64,000 nt of DNA from NCBI GenBank assembly GCA_003568415.1, contig PWXV01000324.1, forward strand, positions 8,736-72,735. Reading direction: 5' to 3'. Positions 19,785 to 62,824 of this stretch are shown here, one piece after another; the first letter of the stretch is position 1, and every line of letters begins with the position of its first letter. A program made the translations under genes and the position numbers. The notes below the pieces were generated by a model, which did not search any database, was not told where the DNA came from, and was given only the letters and a program-made list of their open reading frames with translations. Source of the DNA: Ignavibacteriales bacterium (GTDB taxonomy: Bacteria > Bacteroidota > Ignavibacteria > T3Sed10-11).

Positions 19785-20476
19785 AATCCGAACGGGTGTC
19801 CGGCATATTGAACGTAATCAAATCACACGCTAAACCGGGTAACCGTGAAGGAATGGCACGGTTCGGCATTAACGTCGAGAATGCATATGGTGTATCGATT
19901 TATGAACTTCGAAAGATTGCAAAAGATATCGGTCTCGACCACGATCTCGCACGTGCCTTGTGGGATACCGGTAATCACGAAGCCCGAATTCTTGCAGGTA
20001 TGATTGATGACCCTGCCCTGGTTACCGAAGAGCAAATGGAAAGATGGGTGCAGGATTTCAACTCGTGGGATCTGTGCGATCAGGTTTGCTCCAATTTGTT
20101 CGATCGAACAAAGTATGCGTATAAAAAAGCGTTTGCATGGACGAACAGGGAAGAAGAATTCGTGAAGCGTGCCGGTTTTGTTCTTATGGCAGCGTTATCG
20201 GTCCACGATAAGAATGCTTCCGATTCGCGATTTGAAAAATTTCTCCCGATCATAAAAAAACATGCAATCGATGAGCGTAACTTTGTGAGGAAAGCAGTGA
20301 ACTGGGTGTTGCGCCAGATTGGTAAGCGAAATGTGGTATTGCATCGAAAAGCTATCGACACTGCACTTGATATTGAACAATATAATTCGAAAACTGCCCG
20401 GTGGATAGCAAAGGATGCGTTGCGTGAGTTGCGAAGTGAAAAGGTGAAGAAGAAATTGAAAATGTTAAAGTCATAA
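19781..20476 (+). CDS. AlkD-like DNA alkylation repair protein
   Basis: GMARFGI, LWDTG.HEAR, FNSWDLCD, DERNFVRKAVNWVLRQIGKR; ATGA overlap with the DinB gene. Confidence 0.88.
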   Translation: MKSERVSGILNVIKSHAKPGNREGMARFGINVENAYGVSIYELRKIAKDIGLDHDLARALWDTGNHEARILAGMIDDPALVTEEQMERWVQDFNSWDLCDQVCSNLFDRTKYAYKKAFAWTNREEEFVKRAGFVLMAALSVHDKNASDSRFEKFLPIIKKHAIDERNFVRKAVNWVLRQIGKRNVVLHRKAIDTALDIEQYNSKTARWIAKDALRELRSEKVKKKLKMLKS

Positions 20477-20520
20477 AATAAAGAACGACAACGCTATCGA
20501 GGCAAAACGATTTACAGGTT

Positions 20521-20994
20521 TTACCCCGAACCGATTTGCTTTTCATCGTTAACCGTTTTTATATCCGTTAAATTATTCTGAACGATCAGGTAATCCTCTA
20601 CAATGTTTCCTCCGATGAGATGTTCCTGAATAATGCGTTCGAGCACCGGCGGATCGCAGCTATGGTACCATACACCTTCGGGGTAGACTACCGCGATGGG
20701 ACCTGATTCGCAGATGCGTAAACAGTTAGCTTTTGTACGGAATATACTTTTGTTACCATTGAGTTCAAGTTCTTTTAAACGTTTTTTTAAGTACTCCCAC
20801 GCCACCAGTGACCTGCCCCGGTCACAGCATTTCGGTTTAGTCTGATCGCAGCATAGGAATATATGCCGTTTAATATGAGGAATCCCGAGATCTTTTGCTT
20901 TCCGATAGGTTGTTTTAATTGTTTTTGTTCCTTTCCCTGGTATCGATACGTAAGTAATATTGTTATGAACAGAAAAGTAGAAGGTTTTGTTCAT
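20521..20994 (-). CDS. Thioredoxin-like [2Fe-2S] ferredoxin; start uncertain (ATG 20994 or ATT 20919)
   Basis: [47 protein letters not shown]. Confidence 0.8.
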
Positions 20995-21003
20995 TGAACC
21001 ATG

Positions 21004-21171
21004 GTAGGGTGGACACCACCTGTGTGCTGGCTTTGTGTGAAGGGGGTGGCGTCCACCTTGTGTGCGGGAATAATTCGTAGTAGCTTTTTTAAAATCCACA
21101 CTACTGCAAATCCTTCGCGCAGGTGGAGGCCATCTTCCTGCGCGCATCTCCCGGCGCAGATGGTCTCCACC
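21004..21171. repeat. Pair of GGTGGA...TCCACC hairpins, REP-like
   Basis: Stems 21008-21020/21045-21057 and 21122-21135/21158-21171; the first is preceded by GTAG. Confidence 0.6.
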
Positions 21172-21204
21172 CGGCATCGTGCTGTTTAATTTGAATTTAC
21201 TACC

Positions 21205-22071
21205 TCAACCATCTCTATCATCTAAATAAGAATATACCGTTTCAAGTCGGTCCACCTCATCCAGAGAAGTATTATCACACCGCCTGATAATCCAGGGTGA
21301 GATGAGTTTAACACCGGATTTCCTACGGTTTGCCCGTTCAACCGATTCAAATGCTATTTCATATACTAAACCTGGGTTAATACTCACGACCGGACCGAAT
21401 TGTTCGCGGGTGTTTTTTGACACATAATCCCGTATCCGGAGGTGCTCATCAGAAACGATGCCCGACTTTGCTTTAACAATCGGAACAAGCAATTCATCTT
21501 TCCAAACGGCAAATGTGTATTCATTGCGGGATACATAAAGCAAGACTGCTTTTATTGTGGCGTGCCGGCGGGTCGCCGTGAATTTTGTATGGAATGATTC
21601 ATTGAGCTCCGTTTCACTGACCGGAGACCTGTATGTACCGGTAATAATTCTGTTAAACACATATAGCTCTTTAGGGGATAACACTCTCCATAGTGAATGG
21701 ATGTAATCTCTTGTATGTTTATAGGATGAATGATTAAGATCGTGAAGACGATCCATAATTTCGTGCAATGGCAGTGTTGAAGCACTCGTATTTGATTTTA
21801 CCAGTAGCGTAGTTGCGTCGGTAAGGTTGCCTGTGTGCTGAATACATTCTTCAATAAGCCATAGCGGGAGTTCTGTAAAATCCGATACACATATACGAAG
21901 TTCATCATACTTGATATATCTGCGTTTACCGGTATTCCGTAACAATGATTCTGCCCAATGCCGGTCAGCATCAATTTGAATATCTTGCATATACCGGTAC
22001 AGCCGGTGAACCCGTTGTTTCCGCGACGGTATCGTAAGCAGATCAAAATGAAGTTGTGCAAACGAATTCAT
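21205..22071 (-). CDS. ATP-dependent DNA ligase-derived protein with N-terminal and OB domains but no adenylation domain
   Basis: LPLWLIEE...GNL.D...LL and VFNRIITG.YR (ligase N-domain); YTFAVW, LVPIVKA.SG, NT.EQFGPV, EIAFE...RKSGV (OB domain); no KxDG; 288 aa. Confidence 0.7.
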   Translation of the reverse strand: MNSFAQLHFDLLTIPSRKQRVHRLYRYMQDIQIDADRHWAESLLRNTGKRRYIKYDELRICVSDFTELPLWLIEECIQHTGNLTDATTLLVKSNTSASTLPLHEIMDRLHDLNHSSYKHTRDYIHSLWRVLSPKELYVFNRIITGTYRSPVSETELNESFHTKFTATRRHATIKAVLLYVSRNEYTFAVWKDELLVPIVKAKSGIVSDEHLRIRDYVSKNTREQFGPVVSINPGLVYEIAFESVERANRRKSGVKLISPWIIRRCDNTSLDEVDRLETVYSYLDDRDG

Positions 22072-22104
22072 AAAAATATATAAATTAAAAATAACCCGAA
22101 GTTA

Positions 22105-23583
22105 TCACCCGAACACAACCTTTCCAACCTCACACTCACCGCACCGTTCTTCCCGGCAATAGAATTTATACAATTGTATCTTTCCTTGATACATTGGTGC
22201 AGTTGTTTTTTCCGGTTTACCGTTCAGCAATTCCTTGTCGATCTTGCGTGTTATATTGTTATCCGCCGGTGCAGATAGTGTGGAAAATAATTCTTCAGTC
22301 GCACCTCGTAGATCTATGTCTTTATACGTCCGTGCATATAAAAACAGAAATGGTAGTATAACATTTATCGTAATCTCGTCGATACGGCTCCTGCCGATCA
22401 GTTGTGTTAGCTTGCGCGAAGCTTTTTTACCGAACGTATAATGATTCTTCCAGTATCCATCGGCAGGTATTGTAAAATAGTTTCTGATCTCTTTGATTTT
22501 ATTCCGTGGTACAGCATCCGGTTGTTTTACAGTACCGAGAAGAAATTCAAGCACAGGATTATCGATCATTCGTTCCACTATGCGGGCAAGCGCGGCTATG
22601 CGCAGCGTCGGGAAGTTTTGCGGACGCAGCCGGAAGAACTGCCATTCGGTTGCATCCATCGGCGAATGTTTGATTTTTGTTTTTTCGTTTCCAACTGTAT
22701 GGCGTAATTCCTTTTGATAGGTATCGTCGGTTGTATTGTCAAGAAGGCCTGCCATTTCGAAAAGGAGCCCTTCACGTGCATCCCCGGGTAGTTCGCGTAG
22801 ACGCGGGAAGGTCACAAGGGACGAAAGCCGTCTGAACGGAAGCTGATTTTTGGAATATCCGAGCGCTTCGGCTATCGATTCGTATAATAACTGCTCCCAC
22901 GCATCTTTCTTTCGTAGATCATTAACCGATGGAGGGCGCGCCGGAGGTGGTATCTCATCGATGTTTCCCTGAAACGGTATCTCGCCGTACCGCGCGGCGG
23001 GTTCACGCAGATCGTAATTGTCGGGTGATGCAAGTTCGTGCAGACGGTTATGCATTGTCCGTACCTTCAGTTCAATTCGCCGCATACCAAGTGTAGTAAT
23101 CCAGTTCAGTTTGAGGTTATTATCGACACCATCATTCTTTCCATAACAGGCTATATGATCCAACCGGCGTGAGCGCTCGCCCGATATAGACTTTTGCCAG
23201 ACCGCGCGAACCGGTTCAATGAGAAACTGGTCGAGAATTAATGTCGGCACTTTGCGTCCGCTTTCTGTAGTTGTTCTCTCAAAGTCGCTGCCGGATTTCA
23301 TTACAACGTGTAATATGACTTTATTATATCGCGGGTCGTGCTGGTGAAGGTGAGTTGACCAGTCTTCGAGCGTGCGGTGTATCTCGATGTCGCCGGCGTA
23401 GAGTGTGTCACCGATTTGTATTTTTGCGTTGAGGAAATCCGGTCCGGTGTCGGTGTTCGGTGTGCCCGGATCGATTATGGTTACGGAAAGTCCCTCGTGT
23501 GATTCGAGGGAAGCGGTACGGAAAAGCTGCTGCGACCATACTTCATGCAGGAACTTTTCCGGCAGCAACGTTGTGCGTGGCAT
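22105..23583 (-). CDS. DUF2851-family protein
   Basis: EKFLHEVW, PG..N.DTGPDFLNA.I.I, GDIEIH...DW..H.H..DP.Y..VILHVV, WQFFRLRPQNFPTLRIA, C-terminal C..C..C. Confidence 0.85.
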   Translation of the reverse strand: MPRTTLLPEKFLHEVWSQQLFRTASLESHEGLSVTIIDPGTPNTDTGPDFLNAKIQIGDTLYAGDIEIHRTLEDWSTHLHQHDPRYNKVILHVVMKSGSDFERTTTESGRKVPTLILDQFLIEPVRAVWQKSISGERSRRLDHIACYGKNDGVDNNLKLNWITTLGMRRIELKVRTMHNRLHELASPDNYDLREPAARYGEIPFQGNIDEIPPPARPPSVNDLRKKDAWEQLLYESIAEALGYSKNQLPFRRLSSLVTFPRLRELPGDAREGLLFEMAGLLDNTTDDTYQKELRHTVGNEKTKIKHSPMDATEWQFFRLRPQNFPTLRIAALARIVERMIDNPVLEFLLGTVKQPDAVPRNKIKEIRNYFTIPADGYWKNHYTFGKKASRKLTQLIGRSRIDEITINVILPFLFLYARTYKDIDLRGATEELFSTLSAPADNNITRKIDKELLNGKPEKTTAPMYQGKIQLYKFYCREERCGECEVGKVVFG

Positions 23584-23609
23584 GATGTTCCTCCCGGTTT
23601 GTTCATAGA

Positions 23610-24407
23610 TTATGTGATCTCATTCCGGTATGTATTGATCATTGCATGCACTTCCACTGCGGTATCTCGTACATTATTCGCGTAAATGATCGATCGTCCG
23701 ACGTTTATCAGTAGCAGATCCTTATTCTTCGTACAACCGTGTTCAACTGAATTTTTCAAGTCACCGCCCTGTGCACCGATACCGGGTAATAGTATCGGCA
23801 TATCGGGGGCAAGTTTTCTAATGCCGGCAAGCTCGCGTGCTTGTGTTGCTCCGACCACGAGCCCGATATTTTTACTGGTGTTCCATTTCTTCGCCCGTTG
23901 AACTACCCTTTCATAGAGATAACGGTCACCGACTTTCAATTTTTGAAAATCCTTTGCACCCGGATTAGAGGTCAGAGCAAGAATGAAAGCACCTTTCTCC
24001 GGATACTGAATAAAAGGCTCCACCGAATCGGTTCCCATATACGGATTGACCGTCACGGCATCGAATTCAAATCCATCGAATAGTGTCTCCGCGTACCGTT
24101 CTGCTGAATTACCGATATCGTTGCGTTTACCGTCACCGATAGTGATAATTCCATCCGGTACCAGCTCAAGTGAATCCTCAAGCGCTTCAATACCCGATAT
24201 TCCCTGTGCTTCGTAAAAAGCAAGATTAAATTTATAGGCACATACCATGTCCGATGTCGATTCGATAATGTGTTTATTAAATTCTACAATCGGGTCGCCT
24301 GTTTTTTGCAGGTGTGAAGGAATTTTATCGAGCACCGGATCAAGTCCGATACATAACAGACTATTACAGGTCTGTTGTATTTGCCGCAGCCGTTCGGTAA
24401 AGGTCAT
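23610..24407 (-). CDS. pyrF: Orotidine-5'-phosphate decarboxylase
   Basis: LCIGLDP, AYKFNLAFYE, DGKRNDIGNS, VTVNPYMG, LLPGIGAQGG; ATGA overlap with dcd. Confidence 0.93.
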   Translation of the reverse strand: MTFTERLRQIQQTCNSLLCIGLDPVLDKIPSHLQKTGDPIVEFNKHIIESTSDMVCAYKFNLAFYEAQGISGIEALEDSLELVPDGIITIGDGKRNDIGNSAERYAETLFDGFEFDAVTVNPYMGTDSVEPFIQYPEKGAFILALTSNPGAKDFQKLKVGDRYLYERVVQRAKKWNTSKNIGLVVGATQARELAGIRKLAPDMPILLPGIGAQGGDLKNSVEHGCTKNKDLLLINVGRSIIYANNVRDTAVEVHAMINTYRNEIT

Positions 24408-24940
24408 TTGAAGTTCTTCCACATCATTGATTCCATCGGTTTTTCGTTGCGTTGCGTATATTTGGCTGAAGTCTTTTTGTTGTATGGTGTAAGCACATCT
24501 CCGGATGTTTCAAAATATATTAATTGTCCGATCGGCATGCCATAGTATACGCGTACCGGCTGCTTAACCGAAATCTCCAGTGTCCAGTAATTACAAAATC
24601 CGACATCGCCCTTACCGGCGGTCGCGTGAATATCGATACCGAGCCGTCCAATACTGCTTTTGCCTTCGAGGAACGGAACGTGTTTATGCGTTTCGGTGTA
24701 CTCAAGTGTTACACCAAGGTATAATCGTGAAGGAAACAATATCATCCCCTCATCGGGTATTTCAATATAGGTAACCTTATTGTGTTCTCTACTGTCCAAT
24801 AAATCGTCTTTATAGATTGCAAGGTGTTTTCCGAGGTGTACGTCGTAGCTGTTCGAACCGAGGTGCTTCCGGTCGAACGGTTCAATTACTATTCTACCGC
24901 TCTCGATCTCGTCGAGTATCTGTTTGTCTGTGAGGATCAT
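24404..24940 (-). CDS. dcd: dCTP deaminase
   Basis: MILTD..I, NSYDVHLG, EGKSSIGRLG, TLEI, PIGQL. Confidence 0.93.
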   Translation of the reverse strand: MILTDKQILDEIESGRIVIEPFDRKHLGSNSYDVHLGKHLAIYKDDLLDSREHNKVTYIEIPDEGMILFPSRLYLGVTLEYTETHKHVPFLEGKSSIGRLGIDIHATAGKGDVGFCNYWTLEISVKQPVRVYYGMPIGQLIYFETSGDVLTPYNKKTSAKYTQRNEKPMESMMWKNFK

Positions 24941-25204
24941 TTGTAAGATAGATAATCTGAGTGGTTATGTGTGCTTATTTATCCAGTAAAAATACGAAAA
25001 ATCCGATGAACTGCAAAACCAAACGGCTACCCCATTCCGGATGTGATAAATGTTGAAGGAGAAAGAGCGGGAGGGCAAAAATTAATATATCTCCCGATTT
25101 GTCTGACTATGAAAGTCATTGATTTTAGAATGAAAATGCAGAATATTTTGCTTTTTTAGTGCCTTCTCCGTACTATTGGTTAGGTTCACTAAATTATAAA
25201 ATCT

Positions 25205-61395: not shown

Positions 61396-61776
61396 TTACA
61401 ATTCCTCTAACTTCCTCAAAAACTTCTCCCCCCAACCCTCCATCTTTTCTTCAAGCTTTTTCGTACAATCGCAATCGGAACATGCCCACGGCTCTTCGCC
61501 CGTCTCGTCTTTACACTTGTGACGAGCGTGTGCGTCGCGGATGTCGGTGAGGTCGAAGTATTCCTCCCAGTGGGGGATTTCCTCCATTAACGGGGTGGGG
61601 CAATAGCATACTTCTACCCAACGTACATCTCCGTTATCGAGCAGGCGTGCCTGGTGCATATCACGGATGTATTCACCGCCTGCGATCGATCCCCTCCCGA
61701 GCGTGCGGTTTTCAATTGCACGCTGCAGGGATTTTGTTTTGCCCGGTTTTACCCTTCCTGTTACCAGATAACGCAT
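61396..61776 (-). CDS. Hypothetical Cys-rich protein
   Basis: 126 aa; WVEVCYCPTPL and C..C.DCDC clusters. Confidence 0.7.
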   Translation of the reverse strand: MRYLVTGRVKPGKTKSLQRAIENRTLGRGSIAGGEYIRDMHQARLLDNGDVRWVEVCYCPTPLMEEIPHWEEYFDLTDIRDAHARHKCKDETGEEPWACSDCDCTKKLEEKMEGWGEKFLRKLEEL

Positions 61777-61852: not shown

Positions 61853-62824
61853 ATGACTCAGCTTCTCGAATTTACAGATCGCGGAATTTATTGTGCCCGG
61901 GCCGGTTGCTATATCGACCCGAAACGTGTGGTTGACCGTGCGATCATTACCCACGCACATGCCGATCATGCCCGGCGCGGACACAAACATTATCTCGCAC
62001 ACAGATTAACCGTTCCGATCCTGCACCATCGACTCGGTAAAAAAATATCGACACAAGCAGTAGAGTACGATGAAGAGATAATAATTAACGGTGTTCGATT
62101 TTCATTGCATCCGGCAGGTCACGTGATAGGTTCGGCGCAGGTACGAGTTGAATATGGCGGTGAAGTGTGGGTTGTAACCGGAGATTATAAACTGGAACAC
62201 GACCCGCTTGCAGGATCGTTTGAACCTGCCCGGTGCGATGTTTTTTGTACCGAATCTACATTCGGTCTGCCCCTCTATCGATGGAACGATAGTGCGACAG
62301 TAATAAATGATATAAATGATTGGTGGCAAAACAACAAGCAGAATAAAATCACGAGCGTGCTGTTCGGATATTCGCTTGGCAAGGCGCAGCGATTGCTGGC
62401 TTCTATCAATACTTCAATCGGACCCGTTTATGTCCATCCTGCCATTGAACAGATAAACGAACTGTTTCGCCGGGAACGAATACGAATACCCGAAGTTAAT
62501 ATACTATCACAATCAGTTTTGAATGAAGAACTGAAAACCGCCCTCGTTATCATTCCCCCGAATGCAATGAGAAACGGCTGGCTTGATCATGCCGGTGAAT
62601 ATTCCACTGCCTACGCATCCGGCTGGATGGCGACGCAGGGGGCTCCTTTCATGCGGAATGCCGATACCGGTTTTGTGATTTCAGACCACGCAGACTGGGA
62701 TGGTTTGAACGAAGCCGTGCGCCTTTCGGGAGCCCAAAAAGTGTACGTGACGCACGGCTTTACCGGACAATTTGCACGATGGCTGTGTGAGAATGGGTAT
62801 GATGCACAACCGGCAGATGTATAA
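61853..62824 (+). CDS. Ligase-associated DNA damage response exonuclease (metallo-beta-lactamase fold)
   Basis: YIDP.R.VDRAIITHAHADHAR, HPAGHVIGSAQ, TESTFGLP.YRW, YSLGKAQR, ASGWM, SDHADW, VTHG. Confidence 0.9.
   Translation: MTQLLEFTDRGIYCARAGCYIDPKRVVDRAIITHAHADHARRGHKHYLAHRLTVPILHHRLGKKISTQAVEYDEEIIINGVRFSLHPAGHVIGSAQVRVEYGGEVWVVTGDYKLEHDPLAGSFEPARCDVFCTESTFGLPLYRWNDSATVINDINDWWQNNKQNKITSVLFGYSLGKAQRLLASINTSIGPVYVHPAIEQINELFRRERIRIPEVNILSQSVLNEELKTALVIIPPNAMRNGWLDHAGEYSTAYASGWMATQGAPFMRNADTGFVISDHADWDGLNEAVRLSGAQKVYVTHGFTGQFARWLCENGYDAQPADV

Follow-up and report, generated by a model that had tools for sequence, protein, structure and literature searches.

In eukaryotes, DNA ligase IV plays a non-catalytic, structural role in end joining, and the nuclease Artemis binds ligase IV through a C-terminal peptide. 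The term "catalytically inactive ligase" is reportedly used 15 times in one preprint. The Exo-Lig gene cluster has been described together with its Exo, an uncharacterised SNM1B/Apollo-like protein (PMC7470946; PMC7826289). A full-text literature search, with most subscription journals outside its reach, returned no account of a ligase without an adenylation domain, of a bacterial pseudo-ligase, or of an Exo-ligase complex.

Here we describe a gene of an Ignavibacteriales bacterium that encodes only the DNA-binding and OB domains of a Lig B-type ATP-dependent DNA ligase, with motifs I-V gone, and tentatively refer to its product as the "shell". The window, i.e., the whole stretch of DNA that was analysed, comprises 64,000 nucleotides of contig PWXV01000324.1 (assembly GCA_003568415.1), and all sequences discussed below are from metagenome bins. 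In the reading we favor, and consider rather probable, the shell would be a retained, non-catalytic, two-lobed pseudo-ligase that binds DNA and Exo.

Domain content and authenticity of the shell

The shell gene (P0001) lies on the minus strand at 21205-22071, stop codon included, as defined by the ORF list, the translation, family matches, a family of 16 clusters, and a dN/dS of 0.18 (the last two are discussed below). It encodes 288 aa without interruption, as the preliminary description had stated, and the strings quoted there (LPLWLIEE..., FNRIITGTYR, YTFAVW, LVPIVKAKSG, NTREQFGPV, EIAFE, RKSG, and ISPWIIRRCDN) are all present in the translation. Its sole Pfam match is to DNA_ligase_A_N (PF04675; residues 51-161, E = 2.7e-6, 28.1 bits vs. 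a cut-off of 24.6). Two NCBIfam models, PRK09247 (1.7e-48) and TIGR04120 (7.5e-39), match in two separate stretches each, with whole-protein scores below their curated cut-offs (165.9 vs. 543 bits and 134.1 vs. 400 bits, respectively). When TIGR04120 was run on the genome, positions 2-157 and 422-522 of its 526 were matched, leaving about 264 positions (158-421) unmatched.

The first of these stretches corresponds to a helical DNA-binding domain of the Lig B type (residues 1-161; 21589-22071, minus strand), which is further supported by the Pfam match, ten helices in the structural model, and a dN/dS of 0.176. The second corresponds to an OB domain (residues 171-288; 21208-21561, minus strand); the Pfam OB model PF04679 gave no match to the shell at E ≤ 1, and OB stretches of ligases in the PDB were matched at E = 8.5e-6, with beta strands predicted over residues 171-264. 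Between the two domains, a short junction or linker (residues 162-170; 21562-21588, minus strand) replaces the nucleotidyltransferase domain with its motifs I-V. In an alignment with 130 full-length relatives drawn from the loci set, the DNA-binding domain runs to ...RSPVSETELNES and is followed by a gap that takes the tail of this domain together with motifs I, III, IIIa, IV, and V, after which the sequence restarts exactly at the first OB strand (TIKAVLLY...). A second, smaller deletion removes a 9-residue OB loop. The KxDG string of the motif I lysine is absent from the translation upon direct inspection, and PF01068, the adenylation domain, has no match in the protein. Motif VI, RFPRxxRxRxDK in Lig B-type ligases, reads ISPWIIRRCDNT in the window and ISPRIxRRCxNA in the shell-family consensus, in which P259 is the sole invariant residue of the motif and R260 is retained in 81% of the sequences.

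An AlphaFold2 model built from the family alignment (pLDDT 81.9, pTM 0.55) shows a domain of ten helices (residues 1-161), a linker modelled with low confidence at residues 163-168 (pLDDT < 50), and an OB fold at residues 171-264. Every PDB match listed by Foldseek for this model, among them the full set of 32 at E ≤ 0.001, is an ATP-dependent DNA ligase of three domains, with both lobes covered in the best alignments; ligase IV-Artemis entries are among these fold matches. The preliminary description had recognised the resemblance of both halves to ligase domains, the missing lysine and nucleotidyltransferase domain, and the degenerate motif VI from the letters alone, and had proposed profile searches and structure prediction as checks; all of these readings are borne out, and the domain composition stated above is confirmed. 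Because the entire nucleotidyltransferase domain has been lost, lysine included, nick sealing and self-adenylylation by the shell are expected to be absent. Genes of this kind are currently annotated as "hypothetical protein" or "ATP-dependent DNA ligase", the second of which is misleading. Rfam gave nothing at E ≤ 0.1 over 20300-22300, and a promoter and terminator scan of 20400-25200 was uninformative (13 and 5 sites vs. 10.2 and 5.0 expected by chance).

The shell could conceivably be one half of a split ligase whose nucleotidyltransferase domain is supplied in trans by another gene. In full ligases, the DNA-binding domain can act with a separate catalytic core, as reported for human ligase I, and the genomes of the window's genus are 68-95% complete, both of which leave room for such an arrangement. 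However, PF01068 yields no match in any of the six genomes of the genus, of which the window's is 94.9% complete; the same model does detect ligases in 6 of all 41 genomes screened. PF09414 (RNA-ligase type) was not found in the window's genome. Further, the motif VI residues needed for adenylylation (the equivalents of R257, F258, R265, D267, and K268) are replaced in the shell, and we regard a split ligase as very improbable. The same search, which the preliminary description had called for, agrees with its view of the protein as non-catalytic; the NAD-dependent ligase LigA is present in the window's genome, cut by a contig end.

A fault of assembly or gene calling at the junction (near 21560-21600) was considered as well. 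The region 20500-23600 is recovered nearly in full from 15 DNA runs of soda- or salt-lake metagenomes (released in 2012, 2019, and 2022), which belong to four named studies or have no recorded study; all 15 are flagged as possible sources and are therefore used only to state the agreement of separate assemblies. Among them, a contig of 28,460 nt from a 2012 run spans the whole shell gene with 0 differences, and one of 29,530 nt from a 2022 run does so with 1 difference, both crossing the junction without indels or joints. The same architecture and junction recur in orthologues from independent assemblies. Misassembly at the shell gene, which the preliminary description had named among the findings that would refute it, is thereby excluded; no evidence in favor of an artefact was found, and what was found contradicts it, making this the least credible of the explanations considered here. 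As for expression, a weak hint of transcription comes from a single 361-nt RNA contig inside the gene in one metatranscriptome run, whose library may carry DNA; such contigs show no expression level, and gene parts without RNA contigs carry no meaning.

Selection on the shell and its origin in the Exo-Lig cassette

A search restricted to proteins of 158-504 aa recovered a shell family of 16 clusters (286-318 aa, the window's own included), with the other 15 being 40-62% identical to the window protein and covering 96-99% of it. Their alignment contains 48 invariant columns, and no stop codons were seen down to 40% identity. Within the window's genus, the shell gene is present in four of the six GTDB species genomes; it was not found in the other two, whose completeness is 68% and 85%. 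A look-alike cluster in the ESM Atlas (262 aa, 70 members, Pseudomonadota commonest) serves as a lead only.

Six gene sequences were compared for dN/dS, and one pair was neither saturated nor near-identical. This pair has a dS of 0.33 and a dN of 0.060, i.e., an omega of 0.18 over 285 codons, which corresponds to 53 synonymous changes at 198 sites and 38 non-synonymous changes at 657 sites (Fisher p = 1.6e-14 vs. neutrality). The two domains are alike in this respect (0.176 for the DNA-binding and 0.166 for the OB domain). The neighbouring pyrF and DUF2851 genes, taken from the same pair of contigs, have omegas of 0.07 and 0.10, and the shell is therefore constrained, though less tightly than its neighbours. 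Consistent with this, shell proteins are 52-61% identical across the genus compared with 70-82% for the neighbours; this faster evolution counts against the reading we favor.

The constraint on the shell differs in kind from that on full-length ligases. Full-length ligases have 189 columns with conservation of at least 80%; the shell family has lost 89 of them, holds the same residue in 58, and differs in 42, the motif VI residues being among those replaced. Eleven residues that are invariant in the shells (H8, R20, C61, I77, P150, E155, S181, V199, R214, R250, and K255) are rare in full-length ligases (0-3%), which, as judged from the alignments, indicates a new constraint rather than decay or drift. 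Gain of basic residues was considered as well and rejected: the net charge of both domains does not differ from that of the same columns in full-length ligases, and thus gives no sign of gained DNA affinity, a further point against the reading we favor.

These data bear directly on whether the shell may be a slowly decaying, functionless ligase relic that is open by chance. Such a relic would account for the loss of the catalytic domain and motif VI and for the faster evolution of the shell relative to its neighbours, and broken or frameshifted ligases do occur in other lineages. It is contradicted, however, by the omega and its departure from neutrality, by the open reading frames and invariant columns across 16 clusters, by the new family-specific invariant residues, and by the intact start and stop codons of a gene that has been relocated (see below), and we consider it very unlikely. 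Retention of the shell under purifying selection is shown, and the suggestion in the preliminary description that the gene is retained rather than a fresh pseudogene stands on the 16 clusters of identical architecture, their invariant columns, and the omega, i.e., on the orthologue search and dN/dS estimate that it had proposed.

In trees built on shared columns, the shell family is monophyletic (SH-aLRT 99-100), has a long stem of 0.8-1.5 changes per column, and is placed among Exo-associated Lig B ligases. In our best explanation, the shell derives from the Lig B-type ligase (ATP-dependent) of an Exo-Lig repair cassette. In such cassettes, the ligase gene typically follows that of Exo (TIGR04122): of the 109 full-length ligase loci with at least 1.1 kb of upstream DNA, 75 have Exo directly upstream, four have it within 2.5 kb, and in the other 30 the same strand carries no Exo upstream. 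In the window, the gene after Exo is convergent and is not a ligase. Shell and Exo are separated by 40 kb in this genus, and their lack of linkage likewise counts against a partnership. A shell and an Exo above cut-off are both present in G000, G004, and G005. Neither Lhr-Core nor MPE was found above cut-off in the window's genome.

The shell gene is instead located 33 nt behind a co-oriented DUF2851 gene (22105-23583, minus strand; Pfam 3e-90), and the order pyrF-DUF2851-shell is found in 4/4 related loci with upstream DNA. In the sister genus, represented by G006, Exo is preceded by a Cys-rich ORF of about 126 aa, just as it is in the window, and a full-length ligase homologue comes immediately after Exo; no ligase-like gene is located behind DUF2851 in the sister genus or in G010. 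Taken together, the shared upstream neighbour of Exo and the position of the shell behind DUF2851 show that, in the window's genus, Exo has kept its place and it is the ligase-derived gene that moved. The co-orientation behind dcd-pyrF-DUF2851 noted in the preliminary description thus holds for the window's genus and does not extend beyond it.

This gene order raises the alternative that the shell is a functional, non-catalytic DNA-binding protein that acts without Exo, either as a sensor or protector of nicks or ends, or as a partner of the DUF2851 product, with whose gene it may be co-transcribed. All of the evidence for retention given above fits this alternative equally, as do the conserved gene order with its short gap and the lack of linkage to Exo. 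Moreover, in two genomes of the same class (G024 and G034) Exo has no adjacent ligase-like gene, and searches with P0001 and PF01068 are empty, showing that Exo can exist alone. The adjacency to DUF2851, however, is confined to one genus and missing from the sister genus and G010, and is explained by shared descent, because within that genus the flanking genes are 70-82% identical. Together with the predicted Exo contact and the second shell family, both described below and both speaking against it, this leaves an Exo-independent protein as a serious alternative that we nonetheless think rather unlikely.

Exo and its predicted contact with the shell

The candidate partner in the reading we favor is the ligase-associated DNA damage response exonuclease (Exo), a metallo-beta-lactamase/beta-CASP protein of 323 aa encoded at 61853-62824 on the plus strand and identified by TIGR04122, its ORF, and the co-fold described below. 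It scores 426.6 bits against a TIGR04122 cut-off of 325 and keeps all invariant columns of a 42-sequence Exo alignment, including HxHxDH (H34, H36, D38, and H39), showing that an intact Exo is present in the window's genome. Exo is above cut-off and intact in G000, G004, and G005 (80-82% identical); elsewhere in the genus, one genome has a copy cut by a contig end, and in two (68% and 81% complete) Exo was not found. Two of these genomes count against a partnership: G002 (81% complete) has a shell without a detected Exo, and G003 (85% complete) has the contig-end-cut Exo without a detected shell.

Co-folding of Exo with the shell, using alignments of 42 and 16 sequences respectively, gave an ipSAE of 0.86 (0.87, 0.86, and 0.85 in three runs), compared with 0.00 for the best of three controls. 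At least 91% of the contacts are in common among the runs, and the partner pLDDT is at least 80. In calibration, 58 of 80 solved complexes attained this mark, as did 2 of 110 mismatched pairs; these counts are only rough here because our own alignments were used. Solved structures include no close homologue of Exo (the best are CPSF3 at 5e-9 and SNM1A at 2.6e-5) and none in complex with a ligase, and a score carried over from known structures is therefore unlikely.

On the shell side, the predicted interface consists of 16 residues (13, 66, 68-69, 71-72, 75-76, 79-80, 82, 85-86, 89-90, and 94), nearly all of them within residues 66-94 (T-x-LPLWLIEECIxHTGN...; 21790-21876, minus strand), the most conserved stretch of the protein. 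The mean conservation of the interface is 0.72 vs. 0.53 for the whole protein. Across 129 full-length ligases, conservation reaches 98% at W71 and 96% at L72, and all 13 shells compared, from several lineages, have W71. The contacts predicted for Exo include the invariant L139 and P140; the mean conservation of the Exo side is 0.40 vs. 0.52 for the rest of Exo, which counts against the partnership. Binding of the shell to Exo is thus a prediction of the model, one that would give the scaffold role suggested in the preliminary description a concrete candidate partner and that makes an Exo-independent function less attractive.

Based on these observations, we propose the following for the favored reading. 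The helical DNA-binding lobe and the OB lobe, joined by a short flexible linker, would grip duplex DNA at a nick or an end in the way they do in a full ligase, and the PLWLIEE...HTGN helix pair of the DNA-binding domain would dock onto Exo. In this arrangement, the shell may act as a DNA-targeting or clamping subunit of the nuclease, with final sealing left to the NAD-dependent LigA. Both the DNA binding and the division of labour with LigA are presumed from the domains retained and from the genes present in the genome.

Recurrent loss of the catalytic domain and comparison with known systems

To place the shell among other ligase derivatives, its family profile was searched against 1.84 billion cluster representatives, which gave 2672 matches at E ≤ 0.001. 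Among the best 150 of these, nine are shorter than 400 aa: two belong to the window's family, and the seven others are 300-352 aa long, lack motifs I-V, and have differing upstream deletion borders, all resuming at the start of the OB domain. In the tree, P0111 groups with two full-length ligases (support 99), P0054 and P0168 with the full-length P0100 (95-99), and P0161 with the full-length P0098 (95), and the window's family and a 300-aa family form separate clades, the latter with a support of 100. Judging from these separate placements, loss of the catalytic domain is recurrent and occurred at least four times independently, unless the domain was regained. The estimate of selection given above applies to the window's family.

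The 300-aa family has at least five members (P0040, P0181, P0183, P0185, and G393), which are 65-78% identical to the G393 protein; one member, from an Ignavibacteriales bacterium, carries the source annotation "hypothetical protein". Of 401 sampled genomes of the class, 35 have a match (a tally that includes the unpublished genome G366, on which nothing else rests), and the genomes with shells are confined to the window's genus and G393. In G393, Exo is followed by the 300-aa shell and then by a YceI-like gene, and G333, which belongs to the same genus, has Exo, a full-length, active-looking ligase with EWKYDGIR, and the same YceI-like gene. Between these two genomes, the YceI-like proteins are 75% and the Exo proteins 62% identical, whereas the two ligase domains reach only 34% and 39%. 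This second family has therefore stayed within the Exo cassette, in line with the reading we favor and against an Exo-independent function.

Besides the shells, full-length relatives with a ruined active site were found. The ligase homologue of G006 has YPSHEGTR in place of EWKWDGIR, part of its motif III is missing, and SGLILKR and WILYKPDP stand at motifs IV and V; P0020, 47% identical to it, is damaged likewise. A lysine at the catalytic position is present in 127 of the 130 full-length ligases of the loci set and in only 82 of 143 full-length proteins of the profile-search set (141 from the best-150 list plus the ligases of G010 and G032), a proportion that is not a natural frequency because this set is biased toward divergent cluster representatives resembling the shell profile. 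Strings in clear register, such as EWQWDGIR, EWLWDGLR, and EWNWKGIR, show that lysine-less full-length forms are real and numerous.

The order of events, inactivation first and deletion later, is a conjecture. Both shell families are placed in a single group with weak support (81), made up of long-branched sequences that mostly lack the lysine, a grouping that may reflect long-branch attraction. A sister relationship of the inactive G006 ligase to the shell clade was also considered and set aside: it appeared once (support 84, with a long-branch warning) and was absent from two other trees.

More generally, Lig B-type ligases and their SNM1/Apollo-like Exo may form a complex through the PxWL...GDxAE helix pair, and the scaffold role of the ligase may be more durable than its catalysis, a proposal to which we give somewhat less than an even chance. 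If a durable scaffold role is true, it would explain the repeated retention of lysine-less ligases and, at least four times, of shells, and the window's protein would be a member of an unrecognised class of pseudo-ligase nuclease cofactors. That selection keeps a ligase derivative after catalysis is gone means that the ligase protein does more than seal, and DNA ligases thereby join the enzymes with conserved pseudoenzyme descendants. The co-fold indicates a specific, testable contact with Exo and so offers a handle on the cassette, namely on which surface couples nuclease and ligase, and on whether the ligase loads or restrains the nuclease.

Compared with Lig B-type ligases, the shell has homologous DNA-binding and OB domains, a position among them in the tree, and the cassette partner Exo in the same genome. 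It differs in having neither the nucleotidyltransferase domain nor the KxDG lysine, in its degenerate motif VI, in being about 240 residues shorter, in scoring 134 bits against a family cut-off of 400, and in not being encoded beside Exo in the window's genus. The full-length, inactive relatives in G006 and P0020 belong to the same protein family and share the loss of catalysis, but they keep a nucleotidyltransferase remnant of which the shell has none; the G006 gene, from the same taxonomic family as the window's genome, is located directly 3' of Exo. The 300-aa family has the same architecture of DNA-binding domain, linker, and OB domain without motifs I-V, whereas its identity to the window protein is about 28-30%, its deletion border differs, its OB loop is kept, and it is encoded directly behind Exo, as the window's shell is not.

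A further likeness is to ligase IV, which has a non-catalytic scaffold role and whose DNA-binding domain contacts a beta-CASP nuclease, Artemis. Ligase IV, however, keeps its catalytic domain, and Artemis is bound via a C-terminal peptide, while the contact proposed here, predicted by a model, involves the catalytic body of the nuclease. The shell is thus a Lig B descendant that lacks the catalytic features by which its family is defined, and it probably keeps, and thereby reveals, a non-catalytic role.

Ligase descendants beside the exonuclease gene

In two species of one genus, the site between the gene for the ligase-associated exonuclease (Exo) and a YceI-like gene is occupied by different forms of the ligase: a 300-aa shell, i.e., a Lig B-type descendant without the nucleotidyltransferase domain, in one (L204, G393:C5:66018-69914) and, in the other, an active-looking ligase of 540 aa (L209, G333:C1:1122079-1125678). 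The flanking proteins of the two genomes are 62-75% identical, whereas identity in the ligase domains is merely 34-39%. In the sister genus, a full-length ligase homologue lies immediately after Exo (L185/L197, G006:C2, about 79036-81520). It reads YPSHEGTR at motif I, the catalytic-lysine motif (EWKWDGIR in the family), and the damage extends to motifs III, IV, and V. These defects are shared by P0020, a protein cluster representative matched by the shell-family profile that has 47% identity to the G006 homologue.

Two further genomes of the class, G034 and G024, carry a lone Exo (L186 and L187 respectively) that scores above the curated cut-off, with a convergent gene next in line; a search with a ligase profile found no ligase-like gene beside Exo at either locus. 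Upstream of Exo in the window is a divergent Cys-rich ORF of 126 aa (61396-61776, minus strand), which matches no Pfam family, and whose adjacency to Exo is kept in G006 as well.

Surroundings of the shell gene in the window

Immediately past the stop codon of the shell gene we observed a cluster of GC-rich palindromes (window 21007-21172) of the GGTGGA..CCACC type, with arms of 12-26 nt that are 73-93% complementary. A 15-nt direct repeat flanks the cluster (20864-20878 and 21180-21194, at a spacing of 316 nt), and two pieces of it are found again on contig C203 of the same genome at 82-83% identity. The cluster has no Rfam match, and may represent a small repeated or mobile element.

In a 218-aa ORF (window 20521-21177, minus strand), the N-terminal part, which overlaps the cluster, is probably non-coding, and conservation in relatives is limited to the C-terminal 114-132 residues. 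The conserved part is Cys-rich and of the thioredoxin-like ferredoxin type (Suc_Fer-like in Pfam, as a weak match). In two related contigs (L101 6339-8880 and L102 2587-4276), the shell gene is separated from the ferredoxin-like gene by one or two extra ORFs (225 and about 570 aa), at a site corresponding to the place of the palindrome cluster in the window.

Catalytic lysine and shortened ligases across the family

Among the full-length ligases of the locus-derived set, 127 of 130 have lysine at the catalytic position of motif I. In an alignment of 143 full-length Lig B-type proteins, drawn from the best profile matches (P0017-P0164, divergent cluster representatives), only 82 do, and many of the others retain an intact register around the motif (EWQWDGIR, EWLWDGLR, EWNWKGIR), so that, at the level of sequence, "dead" full-length ligases seem common among the divergent representatives. 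Several other lineages have a ligase that is spread over two frames or shortened (L033, L071/L124, L094, L044, and L105), a pattern that points to genes with frameshifts or breaks, or else to sequencing errors. A cluster of look-alikes in the ESM Atlas, made up of "hypothetical proteins" of 262 aa (70 members, with Pseudomonadota the commonest group; feature score 0.95), may constitute a further shell family.
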